Notes under the pieces: model-generated
What the model was told of the DNA's origin: nothing
The model's database searches: none
Seen by the model: only the letters and a program-made list of their open reading frames with translations
Shown here: piece after piece, positions 1 through 17,160 of the stretch
Layout of the letters: every line of letters starts with the position of its first letter
Numbering within the stretch: the first letter of the stretch is position 1
Virus record (IMG/VR): IMGVR_UViG_3300018427_001843
Strand: one strand, 5' to 3'
DNA length: 64,000 nucleotides
Source: an uncultured virus (IMG/VR IMGVR_UViG_3300018427_001843)
Taxonomy: Duplodnaviria > Heunggongvirae > Uroviricota > Caudoviricetes
Program-made: the position numbers and the translations under genes

Positions 1-1578
1 TCCTTTTATGATGTTTCATACGATGCGGGAAGAACTGAAGCGGGGACATACAAGGTTTATATAACCCTGAATGGGAACTATGCCGGAAATGGCGAAGCAT
101 CTTTCACTATAGAACAGACGCAGGGTGAAACCTCTGCCGACACAGAAAAGCCTGTCACAGACATTTCAGCCTGCCAGTTATCAGGTCCTGCTGATGCAGC
201 CTATACCGGCTCCGCTATTGAACCGGATATACATCTTATCCATGACGGGAAGCAGCTTGAACTGAACAAGGATTATACCGTCAGATATGAAAACAATACC
301 GATGCAGGCATTGCAAAAGCCATCATCGAAGGTAAGGGCGCATATTCAGGAACGCTTGAAAAGGAATTCCGCATTCTACCGAAGAAGATCTCGCCGGAGC
401 TTATCCTTTCCGAAACGAACTTTACTTATAACGGCAGCAAACAGGTCCCGTCCCTGGAGGTAAAGGCTGACGGCAAGGTCCTGGACAAGGCATCTTATGC
501 TGTTTCATCTCCGGACAAGAGCATCGATGCAGGAACATACAAAATCAAAGTAGTACTGAGCGGAAACTACGAGGGCTCGGAAAGCGCAGAATATACTATT
601 GCTCCGAAGCAGTCCAAGCCTTCACTTGTACTGTCATCTTCGTCTCTTGAATACACAGGCAGTGAAAGGGTACCGGATCTGTCCGTATATGACGGAAACT
701 ATAAGCTCAGCTCTTCAGACTATACCGTGATGTACGATTCGGGCAGGATCAACGTCGGAGAATATAAGGTATATGTCACACTGGAGGAAAATTATTCGGG
801 CAGCGCAGAAACAACATTTGCGATAACCCCGAAAAGCATAACCCCGAAAGTGATACTGTCGCTTTCTTCCGTTGACTATACGGGCAGCAGGATAACCCCT
901 GATGTTACAGTCAAAGACGGTGAAAAAGTCCTTGAAAAAGGAGATTACAATATCACGTATGATCCGGGAAGAATAAATGCTGGAACCTACAAAGTGTCCG
1001 TTGCAATGAAGGGGAACTATGAAGGAAGCGGAGAAAGCTCCTTTACGATAGCAAGGCGCCATCTTTCCCCGGAGCTAGTTCTTACCCCAAGCACCTACAC
1101 CTATGACGGGCAAAAGAAAACGCCTTCCGTCAGTGTATACTATGCCGGAAATAAAATAACCGACATCGATGTTGAGTACCCTGAAGGAAGAACAAATGCC
1201 GGAACATATACCGTAACGGCACGTCTTAACGGCAACTATACCGGCGAGGATAAGGCTACCTTTGCTATCTACAGTGCAAACAGTCCGCTGAAGGCAAAAG
1301 GAAAAACGGTCAAGATCAAATATAAAAAGCTCAGAAAGAGAAGCCAGACCATCCGATTGTCAAAGGCTATCCGTATCAGAGGTAAAGTAGGAACACTCAG
1401 ATTCAGCAAGCTTCAGGGCAACCAGAATATCAGAATCAATAAAAAAACAGGAAAAATTACAGTTCAGAAAAAACTGAAAAAGGGCACATATAAAGTTCGC
1501 ATCCTTATTCAGGAAAAAGGCAATAAAAATTACAAAATGACTTCAAGGATCGCAATCGTAAAAATCAAAGTACGCTAA
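1..1578 (+). CDS. Cell-surface repeat protein, 5'-truncated (MBG/Ig-like repeats, basic C-terminal domain)
   Basis: Frame 1 is open from base 1 into ORF 727..1578; ~77-aa repeats 'Y..GRxxAGTYxV...L.GNY.G'; Lys-rich C-terminal domain. Confidence 0.75.
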   Translation, partial: SFYDVSYDAGRTEAGTYKVYITLNGNYAGNGEASFTIEQTQGETSADTEKPVTDISACQLSGPADAAYTGSAIEPDIHLIHDGKQLELNKDYTVRYENNTDAGIAKAIIEGKGAYSGTLEKEFRILPKKISPELILSETNFTYNGSKQVPSLEVKADGKVLDKASYAVSSPDKSIDAGTYKIKVVLSGNYEGSESAEYTIAPKQSKPSLVLSSSSLEYTGSERVPDLSVYDGNYKLSSSDYTVMYDSGRINVGEYKVYVTLEENYSGSAETTFAITPKSITPKVILSLSSVDYTGSRITPDVTVKDGEKVLEKGDYNITYDPGRINAGTYKVSVAMKGNYEGSGESSFTIARRHLSPELVLTPSTYTYDGQKKTPSVSVYYAGNKITDIDVEYPEGRTNAGTYTVTARLNGNYTGEDKATFAIYSANSPLKAKGKTVKIKYKKLRKRSQTIRLSKAIRIRGKVGTLRFSKLQGNQNIRINKKTGKITVQKKLKKGTYKVRILIQEKGNKNYKMTSRIAIVKIKVR

Positions 1579-1597
1579 AAACAACATATTGAAAAGA

Positions 1598-1630
1598 GCC
1601 CACCCGGAGAGGCCAAATATCTCCGGGCCA
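1598..1630 (+). ncRNA. Pseudoknot element, A-type copy 1
   Basis: GCC-CA-CCCGGAGA-GGC-CAAATA-TCTCCGGG; homologous to the copies at 3574 and 15052. Confidence 0.55.
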
Positions 1631-1898
1631 TTGATATTGCCGAGCCTGTTCCCGGCAGCAAAAGCCAACAACCCAACATTCCCGAACGAGAACCCCGAAA
1701 GGAGCGGTCCCCAAAACGGGAGCCAAAGAAAGATGATGAAAAGAAAAACCCCTACCTTTTCGCTGCCTTTGGCAGCCATTCTTAAGCTTGCACCTCCCTT
1801 GTGAGCAAAAATGAACCTGCATAAATCGACAAAGATACGGCAGGCTCTTCTGTCACAGCACATTCAAAGTGCCTTTTGCGCTCGAATTAGTATTCCCT

Positions 1899-1945
1899 GT
1901 GAGCTACCCAAGGCTAAAGCACTTGGGGTTTCTCGCGCCAATTCT
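1899..1945. mobile_element. IS200/IS605-type palindromic remnant (PATE-like)
   Basis: GTGAGCTACCCAAGGCTAAAGCACTTGGGGTTTCTCGCGCC resembles IS605-family end hairpins. Confidence 0.5.
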
Positions 1946-2014
1946 CTAATTTCAGAAACAAAAACTAAATGCAGCGAAGACGGCTTTGCCCGATTCTCAT
2001 GTCATATATCTCCC

Positions 2015-2039
2015 CGCAGGATTCGGTCCTGCGTTTTTT
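2015..2039 (+). terminator. Intrinsic terminator
   Basis: CGCAGGA-ttcgg-TCCTGCG followed by T6. Confidence 0.65.
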
Positions 2040-2141
2040 AATGGTTTCACTTTCGTCAGTCAGACGAATTTGAGATATACAGTGTACACTTTTAAGTTAT
2101 TTTCAATTCATTAATGAAGAACAAAAGAAAGGAATTCCAAA

Positions 2142-3386
2142 ATGAGAAGAGCAAGAAAACTGATTTCTGTGCTCGCAATGATGACGCTGGTCGCAGGCTT
2201 TGCGGTAACATCATCATTTGCGGCGCCGATCGGTCCCGGCGTAGCAACGTCGACCGACACACAGATCACGGTCCCAAAGGGCGTGACCTTCATCAACGAT
2301 GATGCCGTTACATCATACGGCCCTGGCATCACCTACACTTATACAGTTGCTCCGGCGACAGTAACAGAGGGTGCCATGACAGTCAAGGATGCAGACGGCA
2401 ACAGCACAACAGTGCATGCGGGTCCGGCAGGCGGGCTCACACTTGCTTCCGGCAGTCTTGCATTCCCGTCGAGTGAAACATTCACAACGACAGCAGCAGG
2501 GCAGGAGCACACAAAGAACATTGTGATGAACGTAGATCTCACAAGATTCGCAAGAGCAGGCGTATATCGCTACGTTCTTACAGACACGACACCGAAAGCC
2601 GACCTCTTCGCAGCAGGCATCACCCGCGACGACAACTATGACGTCACAAGGTTTATCGATGTCTTCGTCAGAAGAAACGCATCCGGCAACATGGAAGTCT
2701 ACGGCTATGCCCTTAAGACTGACAACAGCAGCACAGACGGAACAGCCACACCGCCTACAGCAAAAGACCCGGGCTATGTAGCCGCTTCGGACGCTGAAGA
2801 CGGAACTCCGGCTGCAACTGACCGCTACAAGACATACAACGTGACTCTGACAAAGAACGTTTCCGGTACACTGGGCGACTTTGAGCACGAGTTCCCGTTC
2901 GCTCTCACAGTAGCAAATGATGGCAAGAATTACTATGCCGCAAAGGGCGACATCAATGCCGCCAAAGCTGCTACAGCTGATGCGCAGACATCCAAGAGCA
3001 CGACTCTTAAGCACACAGAGGTCTACACACTCGCAGGACTTTCCCCACACGCTACAGTAGCGTATCAGGAAACAAACGATACTACCGACCTCTATGCAGT
3101 AACAGCAGCCGGCTCATCCGCAGCCATCACGGTTGCCGATGACGGAAGCAAGCACTACTCGGTAGCTGCCGGAGCAGTATCCACCTATGATACAGCCAAC
3201 TCCACAACATCAGTAGCGGCTGTAGGCGCAGCGACAAACTACAGCGCTGTAACTTACACCAACACACTGGACGAAGTATCGCCTACAGGCTTCGTACAGC
3301 ACTTCGGAATGCTCATGCTGATCATGGTCGCAGCATTCGCTCTCCTGCTTGCAGGAATGAAGACAACAGAGGACGAGGAGCTTTAA
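2142..3386 (+). CDS. Backbone pilin (Spy0128/FctA-like), class B sortase substrate
   Basis: Signal peptide; 'FARAGVYRYVLT' and 'TLTKNVSG' motifs; C-terminal 'TNTLDEVSPTG' + TM; adjacent lepA and sortase. Confidence 0.8.
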   Translation: MRRARKLISVLAMMTLVAGFAVTSSFAAPIGPGVATSTDTQITVPKGVTFINDDAVTSYGPGITYTYTVAPATVTEGAMTVKDADGNSTTVHAGPAGGLTLASGSLAFPSSETFTTTAAGQEHTKNIVMNVDLTRFARAGVYRYVLTDTTPKADLFAAGITRDDNYDVTRFIDVFVRRNASGNMEVYGYALKTDNSSTDGTATPPTAKDPGYVAASDAEDGTPAATDRYKTYNVTLTKNVSGTLGDFEHEFPFALTVANDGKNYYAAKGDINAAKAATADAQTSKSTTLKHTEVYTLAGLSPHATVAYQETNDTTDLYAVTAAGSSAAITVADDGSKHYSVAAGAVSTYDTANSTTSVAAVGAATNYSAVTYTNTLDEVSPTGFVQHFGMLMLIMVAAFALLLAGMKTTEDEEL

Positions 3387-3457
3387 AAAGCCCCTCCTTT
3401 ATATTGTCTTTGTAAAGACGTCCCGCCTATGGCCCTTTCGGCTGCAGGCGGGCATAT

Positions 3458-3497
3458 GCCGGGAAGGATTATTGCGGTTCGATTCCGCAGCCCGGCA
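3458..3497 (+). ncRNA. tRNA-like minihelix, copy 1
   Basis: GCCGGG-AAGGATTA-TTGCGG-TTCGATT-CCGCAG-CCCGGC-A. Confidence 0.65.
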
Positions 3498-3573
3498 GCG
3501 TTTCATATAGCGTTGCTGCCTGCCGAAAATCCCCTCAGCCTTTCGGCATGTACAGCAGCATATTAACCTTTCT

Positions 3574-3671
3574 GCCCACCCGGGGAGGCTTTATATCCTC
3601 GGGCCATCAGGCGCGAAACGTCTGATTTTCATCAACTTTCTTGCCCCTGCGGGGAGGGCTAATTCCCCGCG
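3574..3671 (+). ncRNA. Composite element: pseudoknot A + hairpin + pseudoknot B, copy 1
   Basis: Same architecture as 15052-15142, with compensatory changes. Confidence 0.55.
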
Positions 3672-3742
3672 TTGGCGTAAATTTTCTGTCCTGACCGAAG
3701 GCGGCAGGGCATAGCTATAACAGTCACTGCAAAGGAGCAGTC

Positions 3743-4354
3743 ATGAAGATCAAGGAAATCAACAGGATACTCAGCGAGGACCGCGAAAAACTGGAAGCGG
3801 CCTCTGTATCCGAAGAAGACATCGAAAAAATAGAAAAAGAGGATAAGCGTGTCCTGAGAAAGGAAAGAAAACTCAGAAACTTCCAGCGCCTTGTCCTGTA
3901 TATCTTCATAATCTTTTTCATTATCTGGCTGTTGTTCCGTTTCGGGATCGGCATCGTATCCGCACCGAACGACGACATGCGCCCGGCATTCCACAGCGGG
4001 GACATGATCATATTTGACAAACTGACAAAACAGCCGGGCATCGATGACATAATCGCCTTTGAAAAAGGCGGGACAATGTACATTGGAAGAGTCGTAGCAA
4101 AAGGCGGCGATACGGTCGAGATCCTCGAAACAGGGGGAGTAAAGATCAATAATGCCGCATACACGGAAAACTACATCTACGAAGGGACTCTTCCGCTGAC
4201 AACAATCGAATATCCGCTGACGCTTAAAGATAATGAATACTTCGTACTGGTCGATTCAAGAGAACACGGCGAAGACTCCCGTTATTTTGGTCCTGTAAAG
4301 AAAAGCGAGATAGCAGGACGCGTGGCGGGTCTTTTCAGGCGCTCAGGCTTCTAG
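3743..4354 (+). CDS. SipA/LepA-like signal peptidase homologue (pilus chaperone, catalytically inactive)
   Basis: S26-fold motifs, but 'NDDMRP' lacks the catalytic Ser and 'YIGRV' lacks the Lys; 'DSRYFGPV'. Confidence 0.85.
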   Translation: MKIKEINRILSEDREKLEAASVSEEDIEKIEKEDKRVLRKERKLRNFQRLVLYIFIIFFIIWLLFRFGIGIVSAPNDDMRPAFHSGDMIIFDKLTKQPGIDDIIAFEKGGTMYIGRVVAKGGDTVEILETGGVKINNAAYTENYIYEGTLPLTTIEYPLTLKDNEYFVLVDSREHGEDSRYFGPVKKSEIAGRVAGLFRRSGF

Positions 4355-4369
4355 GAAAGGAGGACAGGC

Positions 4370-5635
4370 ATGAATCTGCTTGATACAGCATCAATACTCG
4401 GCCTGAAGATCCTGAAGTTCGCAACCGTGTCACTTGCATCGGTAATGGTCGTGGGAAGCTCCTATATGGCCTGGGACATGCATCATGCTGAAAAAGCAGC
4501 CTTTTCATCGTATGACCTGTCGCAGTACAGACCGCAGGTAGAAAACGGTGAGCCAGCTACTCTTGAGGATGTAGAGGAGATAAATCCCGACTCACGAGCA
4601 TGGATCACGATATACGGGACGCATATCGACTATCCCGTAACACAGGGACGCGACGACCTCGAGTACGTAAATAAGGATATTTACGGCAAGACATCGCCAA
4701 CAGGCTCGATATACCTGACATCTCAGAACAACAGTGACTTTTCCGACCCGTACAACCTTATGTACGGGCATCACATGGATAACGGCGCTATGTTCGGAGA
4801 TGTCGACGCATTTCAGAATGCGGGCTTTTTCAATTCGCATACAAAAGGCATTCTGGTCACAAAAGACCAGGTATACGACCTTGAACTGTTCGGCGCAGTA
4901 GAGGACTACGCCTATAACAAGACTATCTATAACCCGAAGCGTACCGGTCTTGCCATAACGGACTTCGTTGCGGCAAACGCCGTGCAGAAAAGAAATGTCG
5001 GGAATATCAGCAAGGTACTGGCTCTTTCCACCTGCGACTACGGCAGGACCAACGGAAGAGACCTGGCCTTCTTTAAGGTCACTCCGCACGAGGGTGATTA
5101 CCATACATACATTCCGGATGAAAGGCCGCCTCTGGTCGGGCACGGCGACGACTACTGGGCGCTTCTTAATCTGCTGTGCATGATAGTAACATGCTACAGC
5201 TTCCTGCCTCTTCATGCGCTATTTTCCAAATACAGAAGAAAGCCTGCCATGAAGGCCAGAAAATCCGTTCTGGAGGGCGAAACAGGCAAAGAGAGGCCGA
5301 TCACCCTCGGAGACAAAATGTCCGCCTGGATCAAAGATAACGGCCTTGACGACCCGCTCGGAAGAAAGGACGAGGATCCAAAACTGCCGTTTGACACAAA
5401 GCGCTTCGGCAGAAAAACATCCTTTGGAACCCTCGCAGAGCTTCTTATAGCGCTCGGCTCGGTAATAGCCTTTATCCTGACGGAAAACATGAGGCTGCCG
5501 ATTCGGATCATAGACGAATGGACGCCTCTTATGCTGCTTCTTTTGTTCCTCGCCTGGCTCGCAGATGTCAGGCTGCTTCGTCTGTCAGCAGATGAAGAGG
5601 AGGGCGAAGAAGAGCAGAATCCGCTGATTGAGTAA
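4370..5635 (+). CDS. srtB: Class B sortase with C-terminal multi-TM extension
   Basis: 'IDYPVTQG', 'YGHHMDNGAMFG', 'LSTCD..R'; about 3 C-terminal hydrophobic helices. Confidence 0.85.
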   Translation: MNLLDTASILGLKILKFATVSLASVMVVGSSYMAWDMHHAEKAAFSSYDLSQYRPQVENGEPATLEDVEEINPDSRAWITIYGTHIDYPVTQGRDDLEYVNKDIYGKTSPTGSIYLTSQNNSDFSDPYNLMYGHHMDNGAMFGDVDAFQNAGFFNSHTKGILVTKDQVYDLELFGAVEDYAYNKTIYNPKRTGLAITDFVAANAVQKRNVGNISKVLALSTCDYGRTNGRDLAFFKVTPHEGDYHTYIPDERPPLVGHGDDYWALLNLLCMIVTCYSFLPLHALFSKYRRKPAMKARKSVLEGETGKERPITLGDKMSAWIKDNGLDDPLGRKDEDPKLPFDTKRFGRKTSFGTLAELLIALGSVIAFILTENMRLPIRIIDEWTPLMLLLLFLAWLADVRLLRLSADEEEGEEEQNPLIE

Positions 5636-5724
5636 ACACGCTATATCTCAGGAAAAATCAGAAACCGCAACTACGATACTTCAAGATAAGCCGTAACAAA
5701 GTCAAAAACTTAATCGGAAAAGCA

Positions 5725-6246
5725 GTGCTTGCGCTTTGTCTTATAGCGGTTGCTTTTATTTGCGGACGAGGCTCCGTACTGTTCAAGGAAACAAAAACGG
5801 ACTCATACGCCGACACTATGCCGGTCGAGGAGAATGCGAATGTTGAAGAGGCTACAGAAGTAGCAAAGCGCTATCTGGAGGCTGCGCCGTATTCCAAAGA
5901 TGGCCTGCTCGAAACCCTACAGGAGAACGAGTATTTTTCGGAAAGCGCCGCCAGCGAAGCCGTAAACAATCTGGATACAGACTGGCAGAAGCAGGCGGAG
6001 CTATCAATAGAAAGACACCTGAATGCAGACGGGATATCCGAGAAAAAGCTGCGCGAATATATGGAGGAAGAGAAGTTTACTCCCGAGCAGATAGATTCCG
6101 CCATAGAAGCGGTCTCTCCCGACTGGCAGCAACAGGCGCAAATGAAAAAAGAGGCTCTCAGCGCGGCAGGGGTTGAGAGCGTCAACATACCTGCAACCCT
6201 GCTTTCTCTCGGCTTTAGGCCGCAGGACGTGAAGGATCTGTACTGA
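5725..6246 (+). CDS. Ltp-family (host-surface lipoprotein repeat) membrane-anchored protein; start uncertain
   Basis: 'AKRYL...YSKDGL..L...EYFS..AA..AV..L..DW..QA' repeated 2-3 times; N-terminal hydrophobic segment. Confidence 0.65.
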   Translation: MLALCLIAVAFICGRGSVLFKETKTDSYADTMPVEENANVEEATEVAKRYLEAAPYSKDGLLETLQENEYFSESAASEAVNNLDTDWQKQAELSIERHLNADGISEKKLREYMEEEKFTPEQIDSAIEAVSPDWQQQAQMKKEALSAAGVESVNIPATLLSLGFRPQDVKDLY

Positions 6247-6249
6247 AAA

Positions 6250-6972
6250 ATGACCCCGAAGAAGAGAAGAGCGCCAGTTCGCGCGCTGAGCCTGCTTTTT
6301 CTGGCAGGCGTTATTTATTTTATGCTGTCCGGCTATATGGACGTAAGGATCACAAATGCCGAAGACCCGCCCGGCAATGTTGTAGCAATAGACAGGGCAT
6401 ACGAACTGAATGAACGGGCTCTTGAGCTGTCTCTGTCTGAGAATGAATCAGGCAGGATCGACCTGGAATCAATGCTTCCGACAGATGAGGCACGCATATT
6501 CCGGTATGAATTCTATGCAAAGAACCCTGCAGTATCCTTATGCTATTCGCCGAGATTCACAATGCTCGGCTATGCCCCGGATGCTTCTTACTGTACGGGG
6601 TACAGAGTATCGTTTCTATCAGAAGACGGAGGAAAGACCAGATATGAAGAGGTGCGGGCCGTTACAGACTCGTTTATAGAAGAATTAAGCAGACGCACAG
6701 ACAGAGAAAAGATAAAGGAAGCTGCGAGCTGGATAAAAGACAGATGCAGGTATGCAAAAAATCCGCAGGACCTGTGGAGCGAAAGCATGTACGGATGTCT
6801 TGTAAAAGGGGAGGCGACATGTCTCGGCTATTCTGAAGCCTTCCTGTATCTTATGGACCGACTGGATGTCCCTTGCTACATAGAGTGCAACAAATACCAT
6901 GCGTGGAATACCGTGTATGACGGGACGAAATGGATCAGCGTTGATCTGACGAAAGCTCAGCCTGTTGACTGA
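6250..6972 (+). CDS. Transglutaminase-like domain protein
   Basis: 'ATCLGYSEAF', 'HAWNTV', 'VDLT' give a Cys-His-Asp triad; N-terminal TM. Confidence 0.8.
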   Translation: MTPKKRRAPVRALSLLFLAGVIYFMLSGYMDVRITNAEDPPGNVVAIDRAYELNERALELSLSENESGRIDLESMLPTDEARIFRYEFYAKNPAVSLCYSPRFTMLGYAPDASYCTGYRVSFLSEDGGKTRYEEVRAVTDSFIEELSRRTDREKIKEAASWIKDRCRYAKNPQDLWSESMYGCLVKGEATCLGYSEAFLYLMDRLDVPCYIECNKYHAWNTVYDGTKWISVDLTKAQPVD

Positions 6973-7068
6973 GAAAAATGCCAACATATCCGCTGCCGGA
7001 TGGAAAAGCAGCGGATCATAACACCCCTGACTAGAAGGGCCCGAGCCGGGCCCGGGGAGGAAAGAAAG

Positions 7069-10000
7069 ATGATGAGAAAAACAGTAGTAATAATGGTATC
7101 GATTTTCCTGATACTTCAGGCATCGATACCTGTATGGGCCGAAGACGATGTAAGCTTCGACCCCATGTCCGCTGAAGCGGCAAGCGAAGAAGTTATGGAA
7201 TCTTCCACCGAAGCAGAAGAGGCTCCGATAAATGTGGAGGAGAAAGAAACGGCTGAGACAGCTGAAACGGCCGAGACAGCCGAAGAATCTACGGCCCCGG
7301 AAAAGACCGAAGAAGAAGTCACAACAACGGACGATGCCGTTGCAGTAGAGGAAATAGAAGAAGCTCCTGCCTATGTTCCGGAGCTGACCTATAAAAGCAA
7401 AGACTTTACAATAACAGCGAATGGTCAGTTTGAAGAGGGGACCGAGCTTGTTGCTGAGCCTCTCGACCCGGAAAAGGACGATCTTGAGCAGTATGAGAAA
7501 GACACGGCAGAGAAGGTAAAAGAAGACCTTGACGAGACCGTAAAAAACATTGATCTGTATGACATCTACCTTCTGCACGGCAGCGACAGATTTGAACCGT
7601 CTGAAGAAGTGACCATAACGATCACATACAAGAAGAAAATGGACGCGCCTGATCGTATGCGCATTGTGCATTTCAAGGAGGAAGAAGACAAAGAAGAACC
7701 TATCATCCTCGAAACCGAAACATCGGACAAGGAGATAACATTTGCTACTGACAGCTTCTCCATATATGCAGTAGTAGAAATAGAAGAGCCGGCACCCCCT
7801 GAATATACTCCTGCAGAAGCTGTCACGGAACTTGACGGAAACGACTACATCCTTTCGGTAACAAAAAATAATACGTCAAGAACTTACTACTTCCAAGACA
7901 CCATAGCCGAAGGAAACAAGATCGCAAAGACCAACGCGAACGACATACGTTCAGCCGCCGCGTGGTCCTTCGAAAAGGTCAGCGGATCAGAGAACAAATA
8001 CGTGATCTTTCTCAAGGGAGAGGGCGGAGCCCGCACCTATATGTGCATGAACGATTCGGGCAACATGTCCCTGTCGCAGAACGCGGGAACCGAATTCACC
8101 ATTGAGCTCTACAACAATCAGAGCGGCAAGTTCTACATCTATAAGGCCGTCGGGACAAGCAAATACGGCCTTAACATGTTCGGCGGTGAAAGCGGGAAAG
8201 GATTCGCAGGCTGGAGCGGCAAGGACGACGGAAGCGCGATAATGATGGCAGAGGTCCCGGAAGAACCCGAACAGCTCGAAGAGCCTGCTAAGGAAGATAA
8301 AGCGCTGACAAAAGATCTTGAGTATAAAGATGATAAATGCAGTGCCCGGCTCGAAAGCAGCGAAGGCTTTGAGGAGGGCACGTCTCTTTGCGTGAAAGAA
8401 ATCGATAAAACATCAGATAAGTATGGAGACTATCTGATGCAGAGTACAGATGTGACCGGCCTTTCTGCCGGGCTGACGTTCTGCAGGATATTTGATATAT
8501 CCCTTATAAAGGACGGAAAAGAAACGGAACCGGACTCAACAGTCACCGTAACGATAAAGCTGAACGAAAGACTGGACTCTCCGCAGGTCGTCCACTTTGA
8601 AGGAGACAACGAGGAGCCTACAGTCCTGGAAGCCGAAGTAAGCGGAAAGAAGATCACATTTGAAACAGACAGCTTTTCCGCATATTCAATTGTTGAAGGC
8701 CCTGATCCGGCGAATCTCGGCCTTGAAAAGGTCATGGATATCGATGACCTGACAACGACATCTTTCTACATGAGCCATTCAGCTGGTTATTTCTTCACGA
8801 ACCAGCCGTTCAATATCAACAACTCGCGTAAGGGCGTGAAAAAGACTCAGCTGACCGAGAATCCACTGGAGGCTGCAAGCAAATATACATTCGAGGATGC
8901 CGGAAACGGCAAATACTACATCTATTGCATCGGAACATCCGGCAACAGGCAATATCTCAGAAATAACAGTAATAACAGCCTGCTTTTTTCTGATACGCCT
9001 GTCACGGCTTTCACCGTGGAACTGAAAGAGCCGGGCATAATCCTGATACATAACGGTAACTGGTATGTAAATATGCAGGGAGGCGTAAACGGAAAAGCAT
9101 TTGCCTGCTACGGCACGAATGCCGCGTCCGACGTCAACAGTCAGCTCTGCCTCTGGACAAAGGAAGATATTACATCAGATCCGTATGGCCTTTCAGGCAT
9201 GACCTACGGTCTTATGCGTTATACCGGCGGCTCGCTCGGAAAAGCCATGATGGGCAATTCCGACGGAACGAGTCTTGACGCAGAGATCCTTCAGGTGATG
9301 TCAAAAGAGTCAGACAGAAACGACCACATTTACGTACCTCAGGACAGCGACATTTCGATGTGGACGTTCGAATGGGCGGACAACGACAACTACTATCTAA
9401 CATCGGAAGGCAAATACCTCTGCATCGATGACGGAAAAGTCACGATGTCGGATGATCCGGTAGCGGTCACCGTCATCCCTGGAAATGGAGACTACAGCGG
9501 CAGGATCCGCATTTCTTCCGGAGACGAAAGCATAAAATACGGAGGAAGCCTCGATGCGGGATTCATCGCAGCTTCGGACATAAGCAGTGATTCCTGGCTG
9601 TATCTTGTAGAAGAAACGCCGCTTACTCCTGAATACAAGATGACATATACCGCCAACAAGGTAAGCGTCTCGGATACCGTGAATGTAGCCAACGGCAAGC
9701 AGGTAGTCATCTATACAAGAGAGTGGAACAGAAGGCTCAAGAAATACGAGTTCTACGCCATCGACCATGACGGCACTCTCGTCCCTTGCACAGACACAGG
9801 CGACACGATCCAGTGGATCGGAAACGCCATGAATACACTGCTCTGGGATTTCACTGAATACTATTACGAAGACACTACGACGCCGAACCACTATTACGAT
9901 CTTCGCAACGCATATTCCGGCAAATACCTTGCGCCGCAGGTTGAGGGAGGGCAGATACTGTCCGACTCGCCTATAGGCGTAAACATGTCCGGAAGACGTT

Positions 10001-13000
10001 ACAACGATTATTACACGCCGATTATTGCATGGGATGACCCGCATTATGCGTATGCCGCTCTTTCGGTCAATGATGGGGAGCTTGTTTCGTCACAACTGGC
10101 AAACATGAGCGACTTTTATTTTGCGGTCATGAAAACAGACGAAGACGATGACGAACTTACAACGGTAAATACGGTAGACAGTGCCAAATACGGCATCACG
10201 ATGAAGCTGATAAACTTCGATGACAATACAGGCCAGAACGAACTTCTCGGAAGCTCTGCAGGAGGAGCGAACGTTCCTCCGACGCAGGGACTGCTCTCCA
10301 CGAATCTTGATGCCAACGGCTATCCTAAGGCGACCTTGACCGGCCGCTCCATGCAGGAGCTGTTCAGCGGCGCAACGGATGTCAATCATCTGTTCCTCGA
10401 GAGCACATACAGCTCTACAGGTTACTACGAATTTGACAGTACACAGAACTTTGCGAGCATCCAGCCGGACAACAACTTCAAGGTCTATAAGGCGCTGGGA
10501 ACAACAGATAGCTCGAGCAAGCCGTCCCTTAAGCATGGACAGTTTTTCCCTTATAACGACATCACCGCAGGCCACTTTGCCTCAGTGAACGGAGAGAACC
10601 TGTATGATGCAGTACTGCACAAGCTTCCGGATTCAGACCCGAGGAAATACGAAAGGCTGCATAAAGTAGACACCCCTGACTATTATTTCGGAATGGAACT
10701 TGGAGCAAGCTTCGTACAGACCCCGAGCGGGCTCGACTCATGGGGCCACGACATCATCTACGAGTTCACGGGAGACGATGACTTCTGGCTGTACGTGGAC
10801 GGAGAGCTCATTATCGATCTCGGCGGCATACACAGCGCACTTCCGGGCAGTGTAAACTATAGTACTGGTGAAGTTAATATCAATGGAACGCAGACCACGA
10901 TATATAACATATTCAAGCAGAATTATGAACAGCGAAATCCGGGCGCGTCAGAGAGTGAAGTAACGGCGTACTTGAATGATATCTTCGAGCAGAATGAGCA
11001 CGGGCAGTACTTATTCAAGGATTACACGACACATACCATGAAGATATTCTTTATGGAAAGGGGCGCTGGTGCTTCGAATATCCATATGAAGTTCAATCTG
11101 TCCTCCATCAAGCCGGGGCAGGTGATCCTCAACAAGCAGATCTCAGGAACCGAGAATGATGACTACAGACTCTCGGAATACGGTTATCAGATATATTACC
11201 AGACCGAGGAGAACGGACCATTCGAACTTCTTTCGGATACTGATGCGCGCGGACAGAAGACTGTCACATACCAGAACACAGATACACCGGTAAAGTACAA
11301 GCGGACCTATACACCTGCAGGAAGCACAACTACATATAACAATGTGTTCTTCCTTACTCCGAAGCAGAACGTGACCATAACCGTTCCGGATGAGACCATT
11401 TTCTACAAGATCGTAGAAGTCGGAGTAAATACACAGGTCTACGATGAGGTAAAGATAAATGAGACAGTCACGGAGGGCATTGATGCCGGAACTAACCGCA
11501 AGGATTACGCTACTCCGCCTGCGCGTGTAAATGAAAGGCAAAGGGTAGTCTTTGATAACCACGTCAGCCCGATCGCTGAGAGGACTCTTACGATAACCAA
11601 GAAGCTTTATGATGCTGACGGTACTCCGGTTCACGACGATCCGACGGGCTTCAGCCTAAGACTCTATCTCGGCACGGAAAACGACGATGATCCGCCTGCA
11701 GCCAATTCACATGATTATCATGTCAAGGACCCGGACGGCAATTACTGCCGCTGGGATGTTGCTTCGGGCTTTGTATCGATCGGCAAGTCTGACTACGGTC
11801 TTCTGACCGATGCGGAGAAAAATCAGGTGACCTTCATGACATCTCCTAACGGTGCCATATCCAAGATACCTGCGGACTACAAGGTCGAGGTAAGGGGCCT
11901 GCTGGTCGGAACTACGTTCAAGGTAGAAGAACGCGAGTCGGAAGTCCCTGTGGGCTATTCCTTCATAGACTATGAAAGGGAAGGCTCGTCCTACATTCTT
12001 CATGGTGAAGAGGTCAACTCCGGAACCATAAGAGATAACGAATCACCTGCGATCCTTGTCAACAACAGAAGAGGCATTGGCTTCTCTGTAAAGAAAGACT
12101 GGTCCGATTCGGGCTTCGTAAAAAAGCACGACAGAACATTCTTCGGAGTGTATGCAAACGGCAGTCTCCTCCCGGGCTCGGTAAAATGCCTTCCTGCAGG
12201 AAAGAGCAGGCTGAACTGGTATTTCGACACGATCGGAGCCGGTATCAGCATCAACGACTGCAGGGTAATGGAGGTCACTCTTACCGGAGCATATACAGTT
12301 AACGGAGAAAATGTTATCGGAGTTTATGCCGCACACCCTCTTGACAACGGAGACACCGTTGAAATAGGTGCGACCGGCATGGCAGACGAAAGTCTGAGTT
12401 ACATCTATACGGTTACATATGCTGAGGGCGTCTATTCTGGCCCGGCAAACAACATAAGATCCGATTCGGTCACCAACTCAAGACACGGCATCAGACTCGT
12501 CAAGACCGACATGGACGATGAGCCTCTTGAGGGAGCCGAATTCACGCTCGTAAACAGCAGCGGATCCGCAGTCGGTTCGGGAACATATACCTCAGGCGCT
12601 GACGGACTTATCACGACGGCCTATGTGAATGTAGGCACCGGATATACTCTGCAAGAAAACAGCACAGCCCGGGGATATCAGCCTGTAGCAGACAGCATCA
12701 GTTTCATACAGAACGCGGACGGTACCGTTTCGGTAACGGACGGAAATGCCGCCTGCACGGTCATACAGGGCGAAAACGGAAGCATGCCGGAGATCCGCAT
12801 CAAGAACAGACCGTTCACCCTTAAGGCAGTCAAGCTTAGCGATACGGGCACGCCGCTCGGCAATGCGCATTTCGCACTGCATAAGGAGGTCACAATCGGA
12901 GGGTCTCCGACGATGTCGTTCGATCCGATGCCGGGCTATGAGGATCTGATCTCCTCTTCATCTGACGGAGTCATCCCTAAGATAACGGAAGCACTTCCGC

Positions 13001-13326
13001 CGGGAACATATTACATCAAGGAAACCGGTGCGCCGGATTCATACGACGTCCTTGAAAACCCTGTCAAGCTGACAATAAGCGAAAAGGGAATCGTCACCCT
13101 GCAGACATCTGACGGAGCCCGTCTCCAGTCACAGACAGCTGCATCGGGAACGATGGAATATACGCTGAGCATAGACAACAAACTGTCCGTCATAGTCCCA
13201 TCGGGCTTTGAGCAGGACAAGGGCCCGTACATCATGCTCCTTGCCGCAGCCGCAGTTGTCCTTCTGATTTCAGCTGCGTTTGCTTTGTTTGCTGATCGAA
13301 GAAAAGATGTTGACGATGTCAAATAA
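7069..13326 (+). CDS. Large sortase-anchored adhesin with fibro-slime/PA14 and SpaA/CnaB domains
   Basis: Signal peptide; 'FTGDDDFWLYVDGELIIDLGGIH'; 'LEGAEFTL' and 'GTYYIKETGAP'; VPSG + TM + RRK. Confidence 0.8.
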   Translation: MMRKTVVIMVSIFLILQASIPVWAEDDVSFDPMSAEAASEEVMESSTEAEEAPINVEEKETAETAETAETAEESTAPEKTEEEVTTTDDAVAVEEIEEAPAYVPELTYKSKDFTITANGQFEEGTELVAEPLDPEKDDLEQYEKDTAEKVKEDLDETVKNIDLYDIYLLHGSDRFEPSEEVTITITYKKKMDAPDRMRIVHFKEEEDKEEPIILETETSDKEITFATDSFSIYAVVEIEEPAPPEYTPAEAVTELDGNDYILSVTKNNTSRTYYFQDTIAEGNKIAKTNANDIRSAAAWSFEKVSGSENKYVIFLKGEGGARTYMCMNDSGNMSLSQNAGTEFTIELYNNQSGKFYIYKAVGTSKYGLNMFGGESGKGFAGWSGKDDGSAIMMAEVPEEPEQLEEPAKEDKALTKDLEYKDDKCSARLESSEGFEEGTSLCVKEIDKTSDKYGDYLMQSTDVTGLSAGLTFCRIFDISLIKDGKETEPDSTVTVTIKLNERLDSPQVVHFEGDNEEPTVLEAEVSGKKITFETDSFSAYSIVEGPDPANLGLEKVMDIDDLTTTSFYMSHSAGYFFTNQPFNINNSRKGVKKTQLTENPLEAASKYTFEDAGNGKYYIYCIGTSGNRQYLRNNSNNSLLFSDTPVTAFTVELKEPGIILIHNGNWYVNMQGGVNGKAFACYGTNAASDVNSQLCLWTKEDITSDPYGLSGMTYGLMRYTGGSLGKAMMGNSDGTSLDAEILQVMSKESDRNDHIYVPQDSDISMWTFEWADNDNYYLTSEGKYLCIDDGKVTMSDDPVAVTVIPGNGDYSGRIRISSGDESIKYGGSLDAGFIAASDISSDSWLYLVEETPLTPEYKMTYTANKVSVSDTVNVANGKQVVIYTREWNRRLKKYEFYAIDHDGTLVPCTDTGDTIQWIGNAMNTLLWDFTEYYYEDTTTPNHYYDLRNAYSGKYLAPQVEGGQILSDSPIGVNMSGRRYNDYYTPIIAWDDPHYAYAALSVNDGELVSSQLANMSDFYFAVMKTDEDDDELTTVNTVDSAKYGITMKLINFDDNTGQNELLGSSAGGANVPPTQGLLSTNLDANGYPKATLTGRSMQELFSGATDVNHLFLESTYSSTGYYEFDSTQNFASIQPDNNFKVYKALGTTDSSSKPSLKHGQFFPYNDITAGHFASVNGENLYDAVLHKLPDSDPRKYERLHKVDTPDYYFGMELGASFVQTPSGLDSWGHDIIYEFTGDDDFWLYVDGELIIDLGGIHSALPGSVNYSTGEVNINGTQTTIYNIFKQNYEQRNPGASESEVTAYLNDIFEQNEHGQYLFKDYTTHTMKIFFMERGAGASNIHMKFNLSSIKPGQVILNKQISGTENDDYRLSEYGYQIYYQTEENGPFELLSDTDARGQKTVTYQNTDTPVKYKRTYTPAGSTTTYNNVFFLTPKQNVTITVPDETIFYKIVEVGVNTQVYDEVKINETVTEGIDAGTNRKDYATPPARVNERQRVVFDNHVSPIAERTLTITKKLYDADGTPVHDDPTGFSLRLYLGTENDDDPPAANSHDYHVKDPDGNYCRWDVASGFVSIGKSDYGLLTDAEKNQVTFMTSPNGAISKIPADYKVEVRGLLVGTTFKVEERESEVPVGYSFIDYEREGSSYILHGEEVNSGTIRDNESPAILVNNRRGIGFSVKKDWSDSGFVKKHDRTFFGVYANGSLLPGSVKCLPAGKSRLNWYFDTIGAGISINDCRVMEVTLTGAYTVNGENVIGVYAAHPLDNGDTVEIGATGMADESLSYIYTVTYAEGVYSGPANNIRSDSVTNSRHGIRLVKTDMDDEPLEGAEFTLVNSSGSAVGSGTYTSGADGLITTAYVNVGTGYTLQENSTARGYQPVADSISFIQNADGTVSVTDGNAACTVIQGENGSMPEIRIKNRPFTLKAVKLSDTGTPLGNAHFALHKEVTIGGSPTMSFDPMPGYEDLISSSSDGVIPKITEALPPGTYYIKETGAPDSYDVLENPVKLTISEKGIVTLQTSDGARLQSQTAASGTMEYTLSIDNKLSVIVPSGFEQDKGPYIMLLAAAAVVLLISAAFALFADRRKDVDDVK

Positions 13327-13540
13327 CAGAAAAACTAGGCGCACCTTTTCAAACGGGAGAGGGCGCCCAATCATTTCTTAGGAGAAACCAATGGAAGCCG
13401 CTCTATAGTAAGCATCCTCGCTTGTAGCCCGGAACAGGGCAGTGAGTGCTACAGAGAAAAGAATTTTTCCAAGACAGACAGTGATATATTTAACAAGTCT
13501 TTCTTTCACGGAATTATATCAAATTGGTATAAATATTCAC

Positions 13541-13568
13541 TTGCAATACGCGGTAAACAATATATAAT
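13541..13568 (+). promoter_or_regulatory. SigA-type promoter
   Basis: TTGCAA-16 nt-TATAAT in an AT-rich region. Confidence 0.5.
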
Positions 13569-13594
13569 AATAGTGTGTTGGAATGGATATATTC

Positions 13595-13642
13595 GCAGGA
13601 ATACCTGCTTTTTAAGCTGCTCAGAGAAGCAGCTTTTTTGTT
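13595..13642 (+). terminator. Two tandem terminator-like hairpins
   Basis: GCAGG-aata-CCTGC-T5 and AAGCTGCT-cagaga-AGCAGCTT-TTTT. Confidence 0.55.
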
Positions 13643-13652
13643 TATACGGAAT

Positions 13653-13925
13653 ATGGCGAAATATATAGTCGACACAGAGAAAGTTGAACGCCTGATGCTG
13701 AACCGCGACATGACTGTAAAAGCACTGCTTTCTGCTGCAGAAATGTCCCCGATGACATGGTGGAGAGTCATGCGCGACCAGCAACCGACAGGCCTCTGCA
13801 ACGTAGCCGTTCTGGCTTATGCTTTGGGTGTAAATCCCAAAGAACTGATGCTCAAAAAAATCGAAGAACCAAAAAAAGAGAAAACCAAGAAGAAAGCCGA
13901 AAAAGATCATGATAAAGTTCAGTAA
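13653..13925 (+). CDS. XRE/Cro-like HTH regulator
   Basis: 'MTVKALLSAAEMSPMTWWRV...LAYALGVNPKEL'. Confidence 0.7.
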   Translation: MAKYIVDTEKVERLMLNRDMTVKALLSAAEMSPMTWWRVMRDQQPTGLCNVAVLAYALGVNPKELMLKKIEEPKKEKTKKKAEKDHDKVQ

Positions 13926-14487
13926 ATACAGAAACGTAAAGGATTTTCACCTAACTGACGAAGTATACGCAAGGACACTGAGGGCCTTCCGCAGACTGGA
14001 GATCCTGAAGATGGAGCTCGACAGAAAGCAGGAGGAGCAGAGACTGAAATACGGCGACGGAGTCCCGTACAGAAGCTCGTCTCTGTTTGAAAACGATGTG
14101 CGCTCTTTCGGGGGCTCACAGATGTCTCCGCAGGAGAGGGTGACCATTCAGTTTGATGAAGATGAAAGTGCGCTCCTAAGACTCAGCATAAGAGTATCTG
14201 AACTGGAAACGGCTTTGCAGTCCGCTCTGGATGCGGCGATCGCACAGGCAAGCATCAGCATAAGACCGAGAGTCAAGAAAGGCCTTGAAAGAAATCTGGT
14301 CGAGGGTATCCCTGCAAGCATGATAAAAGGAATCTCCGGACATACTCTTGCAAAATACCGCAGGATCGCCATCATAAACGCAGCAATAAATCTCGAGTAC
14401 ATTCAGTATGATGAAACCGAATTCTTCGGAAGCAGCGTATCTGCTGATTATGCTCTTCCAAGGCTGAGCGCCTCTACAGGCCAGTGA
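13909..14487 (+). CDS. Putative ArpU/RinA-like transcriptional activator
   Basis: Coiled N-terminus, 'GGSQMSPQERV', C-terminal 'GISGHTLAKYRRIAI' HTH-like pattern; overlaps the XRE gene. Confidence 0.4.
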   Translation: MIKFSKYRNVKDFHLTDEVYARTLRAFRRLEILKMELDRKQEEQRLKYGDGVPYRSSSLFENDVRSFGGSQMSPQERVTIQFDEDESALLRLSIRVSELETALQSALDAAIAQASISIRPRVKKGLERNLVEGIPASMIKGISGHTLAKYRRIAIINAAINLEYIQYDETEFFGSSVSADYALPRLSASTGQ

Positions 14488-14512
14488 AATCCCCAAATTA
14501 ATACGGAAAAAT

Positions 14513-14550
14513 AAGCCCGCTGGAAAGCCATGCGCTTTAGGCGGGCTTTT
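14513..14550 (+). terminator. Terminator-like hairpin
   Basis: AAGCCCGC...GCGGGCTTTT. Confidence 0.55.
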
Positions 14551-14552
14551 GT

Positions 14553-14594
14553 GTCGGTAAAGGTTTTTCTGCGGTTCGATTCCGCAGGCCGTCA
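14553..14594 (+). ncRNA. tRNA-like minihelix, copy 2
   Basis: GTCGGT-AAAGGTTTTT-CTGCGG-TTCGATT-CCGCAG-GCCGTC-A. Confidence 0.6.
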
Positions 14595-14625
14595 GAAAAT
14601 ACAGAAAAGAAAGAGGTAATTAAAG

Positions 14626-15045
14626 ATGGAAAATAACGAAATCAAAGAAAAGGCAGCAGTTGCAGCCGATGCGGCAAAGGACGCAGCAAAAGAAGCCGCC
14701 AATGCGGTAGCCGATGCGGCAAAGGACGCCGGCGAAAGAATCACGGACGCTGTAGATAAGGCGGATGATGTTATCTCTCCTTCGATGGAAGCAACACCTG
14801 AGGGAAAGATTGTCAAGATGAACAAGCACGTCTTCGTATGGGTGTTCACATGGCTCCTCGGAGCTGCCGGCATCGACAGATTCATCAGAGGCCAGATCGG
14901 ACTCGGAATCCTCAAGCTCCTGACAGGCGGCGGCCTCGGAGTCTGGGCCCTCGTGGATTGGATCATCGGCCTTGTCAAGGTATACGGCAGCTCGTACGGA
15001 CAGGATGAAGAGGTAGTCTTCATTGACGGCAAATACGCAAAATAG
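14626..15045 (+). CDS. TM2-domain membrane protein
   Basis: '[35 protein letters not shown]'. Confidence 0.85.
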
Positions 15046-15051
15046 CAAAAG

Positions 15052-15142
15052 GCCCACCCGGGGAGGCGCAAATCCCCGGGCCACAGGTCAAAGACCTGAC
15101 CTCGTCAATTATGCCCCCTGCGGGGAGGGCAATATCCCCGCA
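15052..15142 (+). ncRNA. Composite element: pseudoknot A + hairpin + pseudoknot B, copy 2
   Basis: GCCCACCCGGGGAGGCGCAAATCCCCGGG ... GCCCCCTGCGGGGAGGGCAATATCCCCGCA. Confidence 0.55.
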
Positions 15143-15184
15143 ATCTCGCTTATGAAAAAGGGACAGAAAAAGGAAGGTTCAACC

Positions 15185-15820
15185 ATGATTAGAAAGCTTG
15201 CTGCAGTGACATTTTCACTGCTTTTGGTTTGCATAAGTTTCGCTCCTGCATTTGCAGCAAGCGAAAAGGACTCCTTTTCTCCGGTATCTTTAAATATCGA
15301 GGGAAGGCACATAGTAGAAAACAACGAGACTCTCAAAGACGGTAGGCACACCTTCGTTCTGACTGCAAAAGACGGCGCCCCGATGCCTGAGGGTTCAGAA
15401 AAGGGAGTAAAAAAGGTAACGATAAACTCAAACGAGGCCTTTGATTTCGGAGAAATGACCTTTAACAGGCAGGGAATCTACGAGTATTCGGTCACCAGAG
15501 AGATAATCGAAAGCGATACCCTGAAAATGGATGACTCTGAATACACATGCAACATAGCCGTATTTGCTGACGGCACCTATGCAATGGTCTTCGGAGAAAA
15601 GGGCGTTGAAGGAAAGCCAAACAAAATAGAATACACCGACACATACCACGAACCGGAACCTATACCTGAGCCGGAAGATGAAGAGTCAACTCCTGTAAAG
15701 AAGGTGGTGAAGAAAATCCAGACAGGTGAAAACATGTCGGTCATCATCTATGCCTGCGCCGGTGCGGCAGCAGCCCTCGCAGCAGTCTTCCTGCTTAGAA
15801 AGAAGAAAAAAGACGAATAA
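15185..15820 (+). CDS. Minor/basal pilin (FctB-like, single Spy0128-type domain)
   Basis: Signal peptide, 'FDFGEMTFNRQGIYEYSV', Pro-rich linker, IQTG + TM + KKKK. Confidence 0.7.
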   Translation: MIRKLAAVTFSLLLVCISFAPAFAASEKDSFSPVSLNIEGRHIVENNETLKDGRHTFVLTAKDGAPMPEGSEKGVKKVTINSNEAFDFGEMTFNRQGIYEYSVTREIIESDTLKMDDSEYTCNIAVFADGTYAMVFGEKGVEGKPNKIEYTDTYHEPEPIPEPEDEESTPVKKVVKKIQTGENMSVIIYACAGAAAALAAVFLLRKKKKDE

Positions 15821-16010
15821 TCTGAGTCAGAAACGAAGGCCCGCAGGGGCCTTCTTTCTTTATAGCGCCTTGCGCCGCTGCATGTATTGGGACAGGGCGC
15901 CAAGCAAGGGAGCGCTTTTTATGCCCCCCAACCCTCACAGTATTTCTGCGACACTCCACCAGCCGCAGAAAACAAAAGTCATCTTATTAATAAGAAAGGA
16001 ACAAACTACT

Positions 16011-17123
16011 ATGAGAAAGTTATTTACAGTTGCACTCTCTCTGGCGATGGTACTTTCGATGTCGGCAGCAGTTTTCGCTGCAGGATCATCGAATCCGGCT
16101 AATCCGGCAACAGGCAACCAGATCGTAATTGAGAAAAACCTGAAGGTTTCAAATCCAAACCTTACATCAGTTGACGGCCCAGGCCTCACAATGAACTACG
16201 CTATCGCTCCTGTAGCTCCTGCAGCTAACAACGGCGGTACAACTATCACAGACGCTCAGAGCCACACAGGTGCAGTTCATCAGGGTCCTGCAGACGGTGT
16301 TACTCTTTCCGCAAGCTCCATTTCGTGGCCTATCGGAACAGCAGTAGACGCTTCCGCAGCTGGTGCTGACAACGTAAAGAGCATCACAGCTAACGTTGAC
16401 CTGACAAAGTTCTCCGTTCCTGGCATCTACAGATATGAGCTGACAGAGACAGTCGGAACAGACACATCTGCAACAGGCGCTGCAGGCGAGACAAGATATA
16501 TCGATGTATATATCGCTAACGCTGCAAGCGGCACAGGTCTCGAGGTAAAGGGCGTTGTAATGCACAACGGCGAAACAGCTGAAGGCAAGCCATCCCAAAA
16601 GGCTACATTCGGAGATGAAACATTCGAAACAGTAAACATCACTCTCCAGAAGACTGTAAGCGGAAACATGGCTGACAAGAACAACCAGTTCCCATTCACA
16701 GCTACAACTTCTGATAACGGCAGATATCACTATGCTAAGAAGGCTGAAGCTCCTACAGCAGTAAACGACAATAAGAAGGCTGAAGGAACAGAGAGCACAA
16801 CTCTTGCTCACACTGAGATGTACTACATCAGCGGTCTTTCACACGAAGCAGCAGTAGCTTATGAGGAAACTAACAACACTCAGGACACATACCAGACAAG
16901 CATCACAGGCGGAACAGCTTCCGCAGCATCCGCTGTAGCAGCTGGCGCAACAAAGGCTATGGCTTCGACAGATGTTGACAATTCTGCAGAAGTAGTCTTC
17001 AACAACGCACTTGAGGAAGTATCCCCAACAGGCGTTATCATGAGATTCGGCCCTTACATCGGAATGATCGTTATTGCAGCGGCTCTCGTTCTGATGAACA
17101 GAAAGGCTAAGACGCAGAGATAG
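16011..17123 (+). CDS. Backbone pilin, paralogue of 2142..3386
   Basis: 'VDLTKFSVPGIYRY', 'TLQKTVSGN', 'LEEVSPTG' + TM; RBS AAAGGA. Confidence 0.8.
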   Translation: MRKLFTVALSLAMVLSMSAAVFAAGSSNPANPATGNQIVIEKNLKVSNPNLTSVDGPGLTMNYAIAPVAPAANNGGTTITDAQSHTGAVHQGPADGVTLSASSISWPIGTAVDASAAGADNVKSITANVDLTKFSVPGIYRYELTETVGTDTSATGAAGETRYIDVYIANAASGTGLEVKGVVMHNGETAEGKPSQKATFGDETFETVNITLQKTVSGNMADKNNQFPFTATTSDNGRYHYAKKAEAPTAVNDNKKAEGTESTTLAHTEMYYISGLSHEAAVAYEETNNTQDTYQTSITGGTASAASAVAAGATKAMASTDVDNSAEVVFNNALEEVSPTGVIMRFGPYIGMIVIAAALVLMNRKAKTQR

Positions 17124-17160
17124 TCTCCTGAGACTATTTAACATGCGCGGTGGCACCATC

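Follow-up and report, generated by a model that had tools for sequence, protein, structure and literature searches.

Strand-specific hairpin elements in the operon spacers of two sortase-pilus clusters of an uncultured gut bacterium

Introduction

The REP and BIME elements of enterobacteria are G+C-rich imperfect palindromes of about 30-35 nucleotides (nt) that lie in operon spacers just past genes, with at least two unit types combined in composites. They are known to stabilise the upstream mRNA against 3' exonucleases, and they occur in hundreds of copies, in both orientations, linked to RAYT transposases. Differential decay of operon mRNAs through protective structures is presented as established in bacteria in PMC5927463, and PMC4113751 presents blocks to RNase J1 as established in Firmicutes. 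Here, we describe five hairpin elements, A1-A3 and B1-B2, found between positions 1598 and 15142 of a 64,000-nt stretch of DNA (IMG/VR record IMGVR_UViG_3300018427_001843; the window is this whole stretch). They belong to an uncultured Gram-positive animal-gut bacterium and sit in two paralogous sortase-pilus clusters.

For sortase-assembled pili, pilin is required in large excess over sortase and signal peptidase, and few studies have addressed how gut Firmicutes reach this excess from one operon. A recurring module at the cistron boundaries of paralogous pilus clusters offers a handle on differential mRNA decay.

Results

Five elements on the coding strand

The sequences and coordinates given for the five elements in the initial annotation, which was made from the sequence alone, were confirmed on the + strand.

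A1, 1598-1630, + strand: GCC-CA-CCCGGAGA-GGC-CAAATA-TCTCCGGG-CCA; 8-bp stem CCCGGAGA/TCTCCGGG, loop GGCCAAATA, flanks 5' GCC-CA and 3' CCA; begins 19 nt past a giant-adhesin stop codon (1576-1578); solitary, without a B partner
A2, 3574-3606, + strand: GCC-CA-CCCGGGGA-GGC-TTTATA-TCCTCGGG-CCA; one G.U pair, G3583.U3599; 188 nt past the stop codon of a DUF7601 pilin-like gene (2142-3386)
B1, 3643-3670 (3671 with the optional pair U3648.G3671), + strand: GCCC-CT-GCGGGGA-GGGC-TAAT-TCCCCGC; stem GCGGGGA/TCCCCGC, loop GGGCTAAT, 5' GCCC; 72 nt ahead of the ATG of a signal-peptidase gene (3743)
A3, 15052-15083, + strand: GCC-CA-CCCGGGGA-GGC-GCAAA-TCCCCGGG-CCA; 6 nt past the stop codon of a TM2-domain gene (15043-15045)
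B2, 15113-15142, + strand: GCCC-CC-TGCGGGGA-GGGC-AATA-TCCCCGCA; stem TGCGGGGA/TCCCCGCA, loop GGGCAATA; 42 nt ahead of the ATG of an FctA-type pilin gene (15185)

All five lie on the coding (+) strand, across three spacers of same-strand gene runs. None of these spacers holds a credible open reading frame (ORF), in agreement with the earlier description of the elements as intergenic. The Shine-Dalgarno (SD)-like run noted before is likewise present in every copy, as GGAGAGG or GGGGAGG, and is mostly paired in the predicted stem, which contains 5 of its 7 bases. A scan for exact pairing finds four of the five elements, A2 escaping solely through its G.U pair. A covariance model built from the five and run over the whole window with filters off recovers exactly those five, on the + strand (E 1e-10 to 7e-10), and no further diverged copy in the 64 kb scores better than E 0.36, a value that belongs to the reverse strand of B1. 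When compared with known families, as the initial annotation had suggested, the elements match none: a search of the whole window against Rfam 15 at the gathering threshold gives a sole match, HEARO at 17226-17462, and permissive scans of 1400-3900 and 14900-15300 give chance-level matches only (E > 2), none of them on the elements.

Covariation of the long stem

The long stem of 7-8 bp had been said to covary, and it does. Over its 8 pairs and the five copies, all 40 cells are paired; 3 pairs are changed on both sides and 1 on one side. Of the two-sided changes, two distinguish A from B (C-G to G-C and C-G to U-A) and one is found in A1 (G-C to A-U), while the one-sided change is the G.U of A2. 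This covariation score is matched by only 1 of 500 shuffles, and in slid controls pairing falls to 24-60%. The wobble pairs G3583.U3599, G3611.U3621 and U3648.G3671 would each be a C.A mismatch on the opposite strand. Bare-hairpin stability is -13 to -17.5 kcal/mol, and the spacer at 3387-3742 (356 nt) is unusually structured, with z = -4.1 on either strand. A real, strand-specific family of RNA-level-looking signals in operon spacers is thus supported.

A module of about 95 nt

The initial annotation did not notice that A and B belong together in a single tripartite module. Aligned with each other, the spacers show the same ~95-nt unit twice, as A2...B1 and as A3...B2, with the order A, CCA, middle hairpin, TCRTCAA, B. 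The parts between A and B are the following.

Module 1 middle hairpin, 3606-3630, + strand: ATCAGGCG/CGTCTGAT, with G3611.U3621, then TTTT
Module 1 linker, 3629-3635, + strand: TCATCAA
Module 2 middle hairpin, 15084-15098, + strand: CAGGTC/GACCTG, loop AAA, without a U-run
Module 2 linker, 15102-15108, + strand: TCGTCAA

The middle hairpin looks like an intrinsic terminator in module 1. Its pairing is kept in module 2, where two pairs are changed on both sides and one G.U is replaced by G-C. Element A usually lies just past a stop codon, which suggests protection of a 3' end at least equally as it does a 5' block.

Constraint on the core sequences

The A cores starting at 3574 and 15052 are identical at 16 of 16 nt, as are the B cores starting at 3644 and 15115. 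Protein identity between the paralogues encoded next to the modules is 50% for the signal peptidase, 37% for the sortase and 32% for DUF7601. Between the modules, divergence is seen in the middle hairpin and in the 3' half of the loops, and differences among copies fall in loops, linkers and compensated stem positions. Such core identity despite divergent proteins, with the differences distributed in this way, is a pattern of purifying selection on specific bases, to which concerted evolution of short repeats is the alternative.

Copies in relatives and searches for homologues

Both A3 and B2 are kept in contigs of three runs that are ~93% identical to the window; the B2 of these relatives has one C fewer and a T to A change in the loop. 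The public runs that carry the stretch are animal faeces and gut metagenomes. Related runs hold additional copies of A and B on other contigs, including one locus in which the module is doubled, with 607 letters between the copies. In one relative, a variant A again stands just past ...AAAATAG. In another case, the module is followed by 17 letters with TTGACA and then by a stretch like the window's promoter region at 13555-13607, which puts the module at a unit's 3' end. The extra pieces are few, ~four A and ~three B in related run X15, a count that short or more diverged copies may escape, and such a handful argues against a high-copy repeat.

Beyond these relatives, the A pattern (GCCCNCCCGGRGAGGC-N3-8-TCYYCGGG) was found at 10 loci in GTDB representative genomes and 14 in JGI metagenomes, and none of the 24 is related. 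They lie in DNA of 59-76% G+C (Streptomyces, Nonomuraea, Myxococcota, Acidobacteriota, a Spirochaetota metagenome-assembled genome and others) and are plain long hairpins or coding sequence, with the module in none. The Spirochaetota genome (1501-1528) and a metagenome contig (2501-2528) carry an identical 28-nt hairpin that agrees with the A1 core over its first 16 nt; this was judged to be chance, given 59-60% G+C and no module. Neither the A nor the B pattern has a locus in viral contigs, and megablast of 1-20000 against plasmids gave no match. No description of such a motif was found in the literature searched, and none of three core strings occurs in the supplements of PMC8040213 that were searched. 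In one guessed RNA run, assembled into contigs, the contigs end at 15038 and resume at 15168, a gap that is uninformative on RNA ends because repeats break assemblies. As far as could be seen, the motif is confined to one gut lineage.

The proposed pseudoknot pairing

The initial annotation had presented the elements as H-type pseudoknots with compensatory changes, in which the 5' GCC or GCCC (stem 1) pairs with GGC or GGGC in the loop. The complementarity holds in all five copies, but the compensatory changes all belong to the ordinary hairpin stem. Stem 1 itself is invariant and has no compensatory change: two of its three pairs never vary, and the 'double change' at the third is a register artefact that arises when the 3-bp stem of A is aligned to the 4-bp stem of B. 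Similarly, the linker described as fixed at 2 nt is so in A, but in B it measures 1-3 nt according to how the U.G or U-A end pair is counted, and since relatives have one C fewer at 15114 the B linker differs between strains.

To gauge chance, hairpin loci (7 or more exact pairs, loop of 6-12 nt) were counted in the window and in 30 dinucleotide shuffles. Among 96 such loci in the window, a loop triplet is complementary to the 5' flank in 10 when any of six registers is allowed and in 3 in the strict register; the shuffles give 4.6 and 0.9, respectively, of 45.2 loci. A matching triplet is therefore expected in ~10% of hairpins (six registers) or ~2% (strict). Unrelated sequences such as that at 44175-44203 (- strand) also fit the scheme, and a pseudoknot-compatible topology by itself is not rare. 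Competing folds exist as well. In A, GGCCC/GGGCC combines with GGGGA/UCCCC across a 4-nt bulge, and this is the minimum-energy fold of the entire module 2; in B1, GCC...GGC from the 3' flank lengthens the hairpin. The pseudoknot is possible.

Genomic setting

The window has a G+C content of 47%. Genes for Gram-positive surface structures, all on the + strand, fill its first 47 kb, and 36 ORFs of the window were scanned against Pfam. Genes of this region are listed below; some in these operons are very long, encoding 2108, 3792 and 2813 aa.

1-1578, 7000-13326, 21060-32438, 32571-37553 and 37753-46194, + strand: giant adhesin genes
2142-3386 and 15726-17123, + strand: two DUF7601 pilin-like genes
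3743 and 19402 (starts), + strand: two S26 signal peptidase genes
4370 and 19902 (starts), + strand: two sortase genes
~13655-13925: small XRE-type helix-turn-helix (HTH) gene, which opens the unit that ends in module 2
14626-15045, + strand: TM2-domain gene
15185-15820, + strand: FctA-type LPXTG pilin gene

The second pilus cluster contains an inserted unit at 17226-18917, which lies between the DUF7601 gene and the signal-peptidase/sortase pair. It consists of the HEARO (omega) RNA (129.6 bits in the Rfam scan) and, 3' of it, an IscB-type gene with RRXRR and HNH domains at 17568-18917. Further along the window, a block at 46860-57017 holds ~14 ORFs with no Pfam match, and a complete type I restriction-modification operon (HsdM, HsdS, HsdR) lies at 57223-63569.

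Terminators, promoters and other signals

Canonical hairpin-plus-U terminators occur in the window at 2015, 13614, 15835, 17161 and 32483. The tails of the elements (CCATTGAT, CCATCAGG, CCACAGG, GTTGGCG and ATCTCGC) have no U-run, TTTT being found only at the module 1 middle hairpin, and the elements are therefore not terminators, though the organism has canonical ones. Twelve sigma-70-like sites were found in 1-20000, none of them within the three element spacers, so the elements should be read through from upstream; the closest site, at 13541, is ahead of the small HTH gene. Other known signals were also rejected. A programmed recoding signal does not agree with stop spacings of 6 nt (A3), 19 nt (A1) and 188 nt (A2) and with B elements away from stops. 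The ends of the elements have no RYYYAAC/GTTRRRY cores of an integron attC site, and no integrase is present among the ORFs scanned. For A as a tRNA gene or att remnant, ARAGORN gives 0 tRNAs.

Several features of the pilus loci were observed alongside. One canonical terminator (15835-15854) stands directly past the stop of the FctA pilin gene (15820), and together they are the classic layout of a major pilin followed by a partial terminator. This terminator falls within ORF 15726-17123 as listed, but the position of the signal peptide in an alignment of the paralogues points to a probable real start near 16000. Ahead of the other DUF7601 gene is a long untranslated stretch (1733-2141) with a 23-codon signal-peptide-like ORF (1733-1804), a 76-codon ORF (1811-2041) and a canonical terminator at 2015-2033, which may be a leader/attenuator arrangement or a gene remnant; a decayed pilin gene in 1579-2141 was rejected, as tblastn gives no similarity to the FctA pilin. 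Just past the stop of the 2108-aa adhesin, a hairpin GGCGC...GCGCC (13341-13368) contains an anti-SD-like CCTTTTC that can pair with an SD-like GGAGAGG inside it. In the same manner, the GGGGAGG of A2 and that of B1 can pair with CCTTTCT and CTTTCTT, which lie ahead of these elements.

A tRNA-like 'top half' occurs in three copies on the + strand, at 3455-3497, 14543-14593 and 32510-32548. It has a 5-bp stem TGCGG/CCGCA with a T-loop-like TTCGAYT, set within a 6-bp acceptor-like outer stem. This outer stem comes after a connector AA.GG.T and shows covariation, with two double-sided changes (GCCGGG/CCCGGC versus GATGGC/GCCGTC). Two of the copies follow a canonical terminator and are ~25-40 nt ahead of the next start codon. 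Neither ARAGORN nor Rfam reports a tRNA at these places, and a related run has one more copy.

Discussion

Elements on the operon mRNA

The elements most probably work at the level of the messenger RNA. We favour, with less than even confidence, the reading that they are cis-acting stem-loops on the polycistronic pilus-operon mRNA that set its processing and stability. It draws on the RNA-type structure of the + strand, the location in same-strand spacers, the lack of a U-run, selection at the sequence level, the position relative to stop codons, the stability of the stems and what is known of operon-mRNA decay. Transcription through the spacers, cleavage, protection of ends and any role for the GCC/GGC loop pairing are inferred. 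Both the cutting of the operon transcript and the lifetime of its pieces would be set by the module. Just past a stop codon, A would block 3'-to-5' exonucleases and so protect the upstream cistron; the middle hairpin would be a leaky terminator or a cleavage site; and B, as a 5' cap, would shield the downstream cistron from 5'-to-3' decay of the RNase J type. One transcript would then yield pilin, signal peptidase and sortase in unequal amounts, and the module could serve as a portable stabiliser or insulator part.

Several points weigh against this reading. Simple hairpins that protect ends need no conserved sequence, and the invariant GCCC, GGRGAGG(G)C and CCA suggest a specific partner, such as a protein, the ribosome or a tertiary fold. 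Loops of 8-10 nt exceed what would be expected of a purely protective hairpin, and A2, at its distance of 188 nt, does not adjoin the preceding stop. Furthermore, one lineage was examined and the copies are paralogous, so that the covariation counts are few and non-independent.

Alternative explanations

The conserved loop bases would be accounted for if each element were a compact H-type pseudoknot and the knot the functional unit, for example as a mechanical RNase J block or a docking site, which we consider unlikely. In this geometry, stem 1 would be stacked on the 7-8-bp stem 2, with 2 nt in loop 1 and 4-6 nt in an A/U-rich loop 3, lengths that sterically fit classical H-type knots under the Pleij rules. 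The two complementary blocks are the best-conserved unpaired bases and keep fixed spacing in all five copies, whereas the remainder of the loop varies and is A/U-rich (CAAATA, TTTATA, GCAAA, TAAT, AATA); the extra loop G of B extends the complementarity to 4 bp; and the variant GCT for GCC in a relative still pairs through G.U, on the + strand only. Loops of this size are also hard to account for otherwise. In energy, stem-1 stacking of about -6.5 (A) and -9.8 kcal/mol (B) would stand in place of a loop term of +4.3 to +5.2, and by a rough estimate a net ~-1 (A) and ~-4 kcal/mol (B) remains against a pseudoknot penalty of ~10 kcal/mol (the Dirks-Pierce value). However, the invariance of stem 1 leaves it without a compensatory change, the chance rate of a matching triplet is appreciable for what counts as one event, A and B being likely of one origin, both A and B1 have competing folds, and strains differ in the B linker by a single C. 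Should the pairing of loop and 5' flank prove true, few bacterial pseudoknots that act in mRNA decay would be as small. A wider view is quite improbable to us: that A and B are a new ~30-nt class of bacterial H-type pseudoknot for sortase-pilus operons and form a 'punctuation' system with the tRNA-like minihelices (3455-3497, 14569-14587, 32526-32545), in which the operon mRNA would first be cut by tRNA-processing enzymes, after which knotted caps would halt RNase J and 3' exonucleases. If this were true, the stoichiometry of the pilus parts would be set by cutting and capping.

Conservation of sequence, beyond structure, would also be expected of a regulatory RNA operator, bound in attenuation or processive antitermination by RNA polymerase, by a pilus-specific RNA-binding protein or, through the SD-like GGRGAGG, by the ribosome, with control of read-through at the middle hairpin/terminator or of downstream translation. 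Two similar hairpins do surround a terminator-like U-run hairpin in module 1, antitermination would suit the very long genes, and attenuation is in use at Gram-positive pilus loci according to PMC3894217. What makes this rather doubtful is that the middle hairpin of module 2 has no U-run, which leaves nothing to antiterminate there, that A1 is solitary, that the SD-like bases are mostly paired, that no candidate RNA-binding regulator is recognisable among the ORFs scanned, and that ANTAR, EAR, put and other Rfam families give no match. To a similar degree we doubt that the elements are primarily DNA-level repeats, either a small REP/BIME- or MITE-like family or sites of recombination or gene conversion that shuffle pilus cassettes, with any RNA effect secondary. 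Dispersed, near-identical palindromic units of two types in mosaics at gene ends do recall BIMEs, their identity is far above that of the flanking genes, as from recent spread or conversion, and in relatives the units flank other segments, in a doubled module and on other contigs. Yet all five have one orientation, the window's other spacers hold none, and related runs add few pieces; the differences, concentrated in loops and compensated in stems, resemble purifying selection over recent copying, and the G.U pairs form on one strand only. Neither Y1/RAYT nor any other transposase adjoins the elements among the ORFs scanned, the IscB/HEARO unit is unrelated in sequence, and target-site duplications or flanking direct repeats are not visible. 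It is very improbable that the inverted repeats are DNA operators of a dimeric factor such as the XRE-type HTH protein, acting as a roadblock or repressor site of a pilus regulon. The arms form an 8-N8/9-8 inverted repeat and the unit ending in module 2 starts with the small HTH gene, but no promoter-like site overlaps the elements, the conserved GCCC flank and GGGC loop lack the symmetry of a dimer site, and the changes in the arms are compensatory and do not converge on one half-site consensus.

Comparison with known systems

Several described systems share one or another property with the elements. Flaviviral exonuclease-resistant RNAs offer the concept of a compact, knotted RNA as a mechanical stop to a 5'-to-3' exonuclease, but they are three-way junctions of ~70 nt with a ring-like fold, an architecture that the elements do not have. 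The order of segments (5' strand of S1, short L1, 5' strand of S2, 3' strand of S1 without a gap, A-rich L3, 3' strand of S2), the total of ~30 nt and stems that could stack coaxially are as in classical H-type pseudoknots such as those of the phage T2/T4 gene 32 leader, the TYMV 3' end and the preQ1-I aptamer. In contrast to these, stem 1 here has 3-4 bp and no covariation support, no Rfam pseudoknot matches, and no ligand, frameshift site or autoregulated gene is attached. REP/BIME elements are similar in having palindromic units in operon spacers past genes and two unit types in composite modules, whereas here there are five co-oriented copies in 64 kb, with no RAYT seen and at pilus loci only.

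Two Gram-positive systems offer further parallels. In PMC3894217, the pil1 pilus operon of Streptococcus gallolyticus is under RNA-level control by an untranslated stem-loop, a kind of role that is here proposed for another sortase-pilus system. However, pil1 combines a repeat-containing leader peptide with a canonical terminator at the 5' end of the operon, whereas A and B are between cistrons, without a U-run and without a leader ORF across them. With the STAB-SD of cry3A and the 5' stem-loops that stop RNase J1, as described in PMC4113751, the elements share an SD-like purine run in untranslated Gram-positive mRNA and a proposed role in halting 5'-to-3' decay to protect the downstream cistron; the STAB-SD differs in that its accessible single strand binds the 30S subunit, while the corresponding bases here are mostly in the stem. 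The elements appear to belong with the intercistronic hairpin elements that act on mRNA, as a narrow, lineage-restricted motif.

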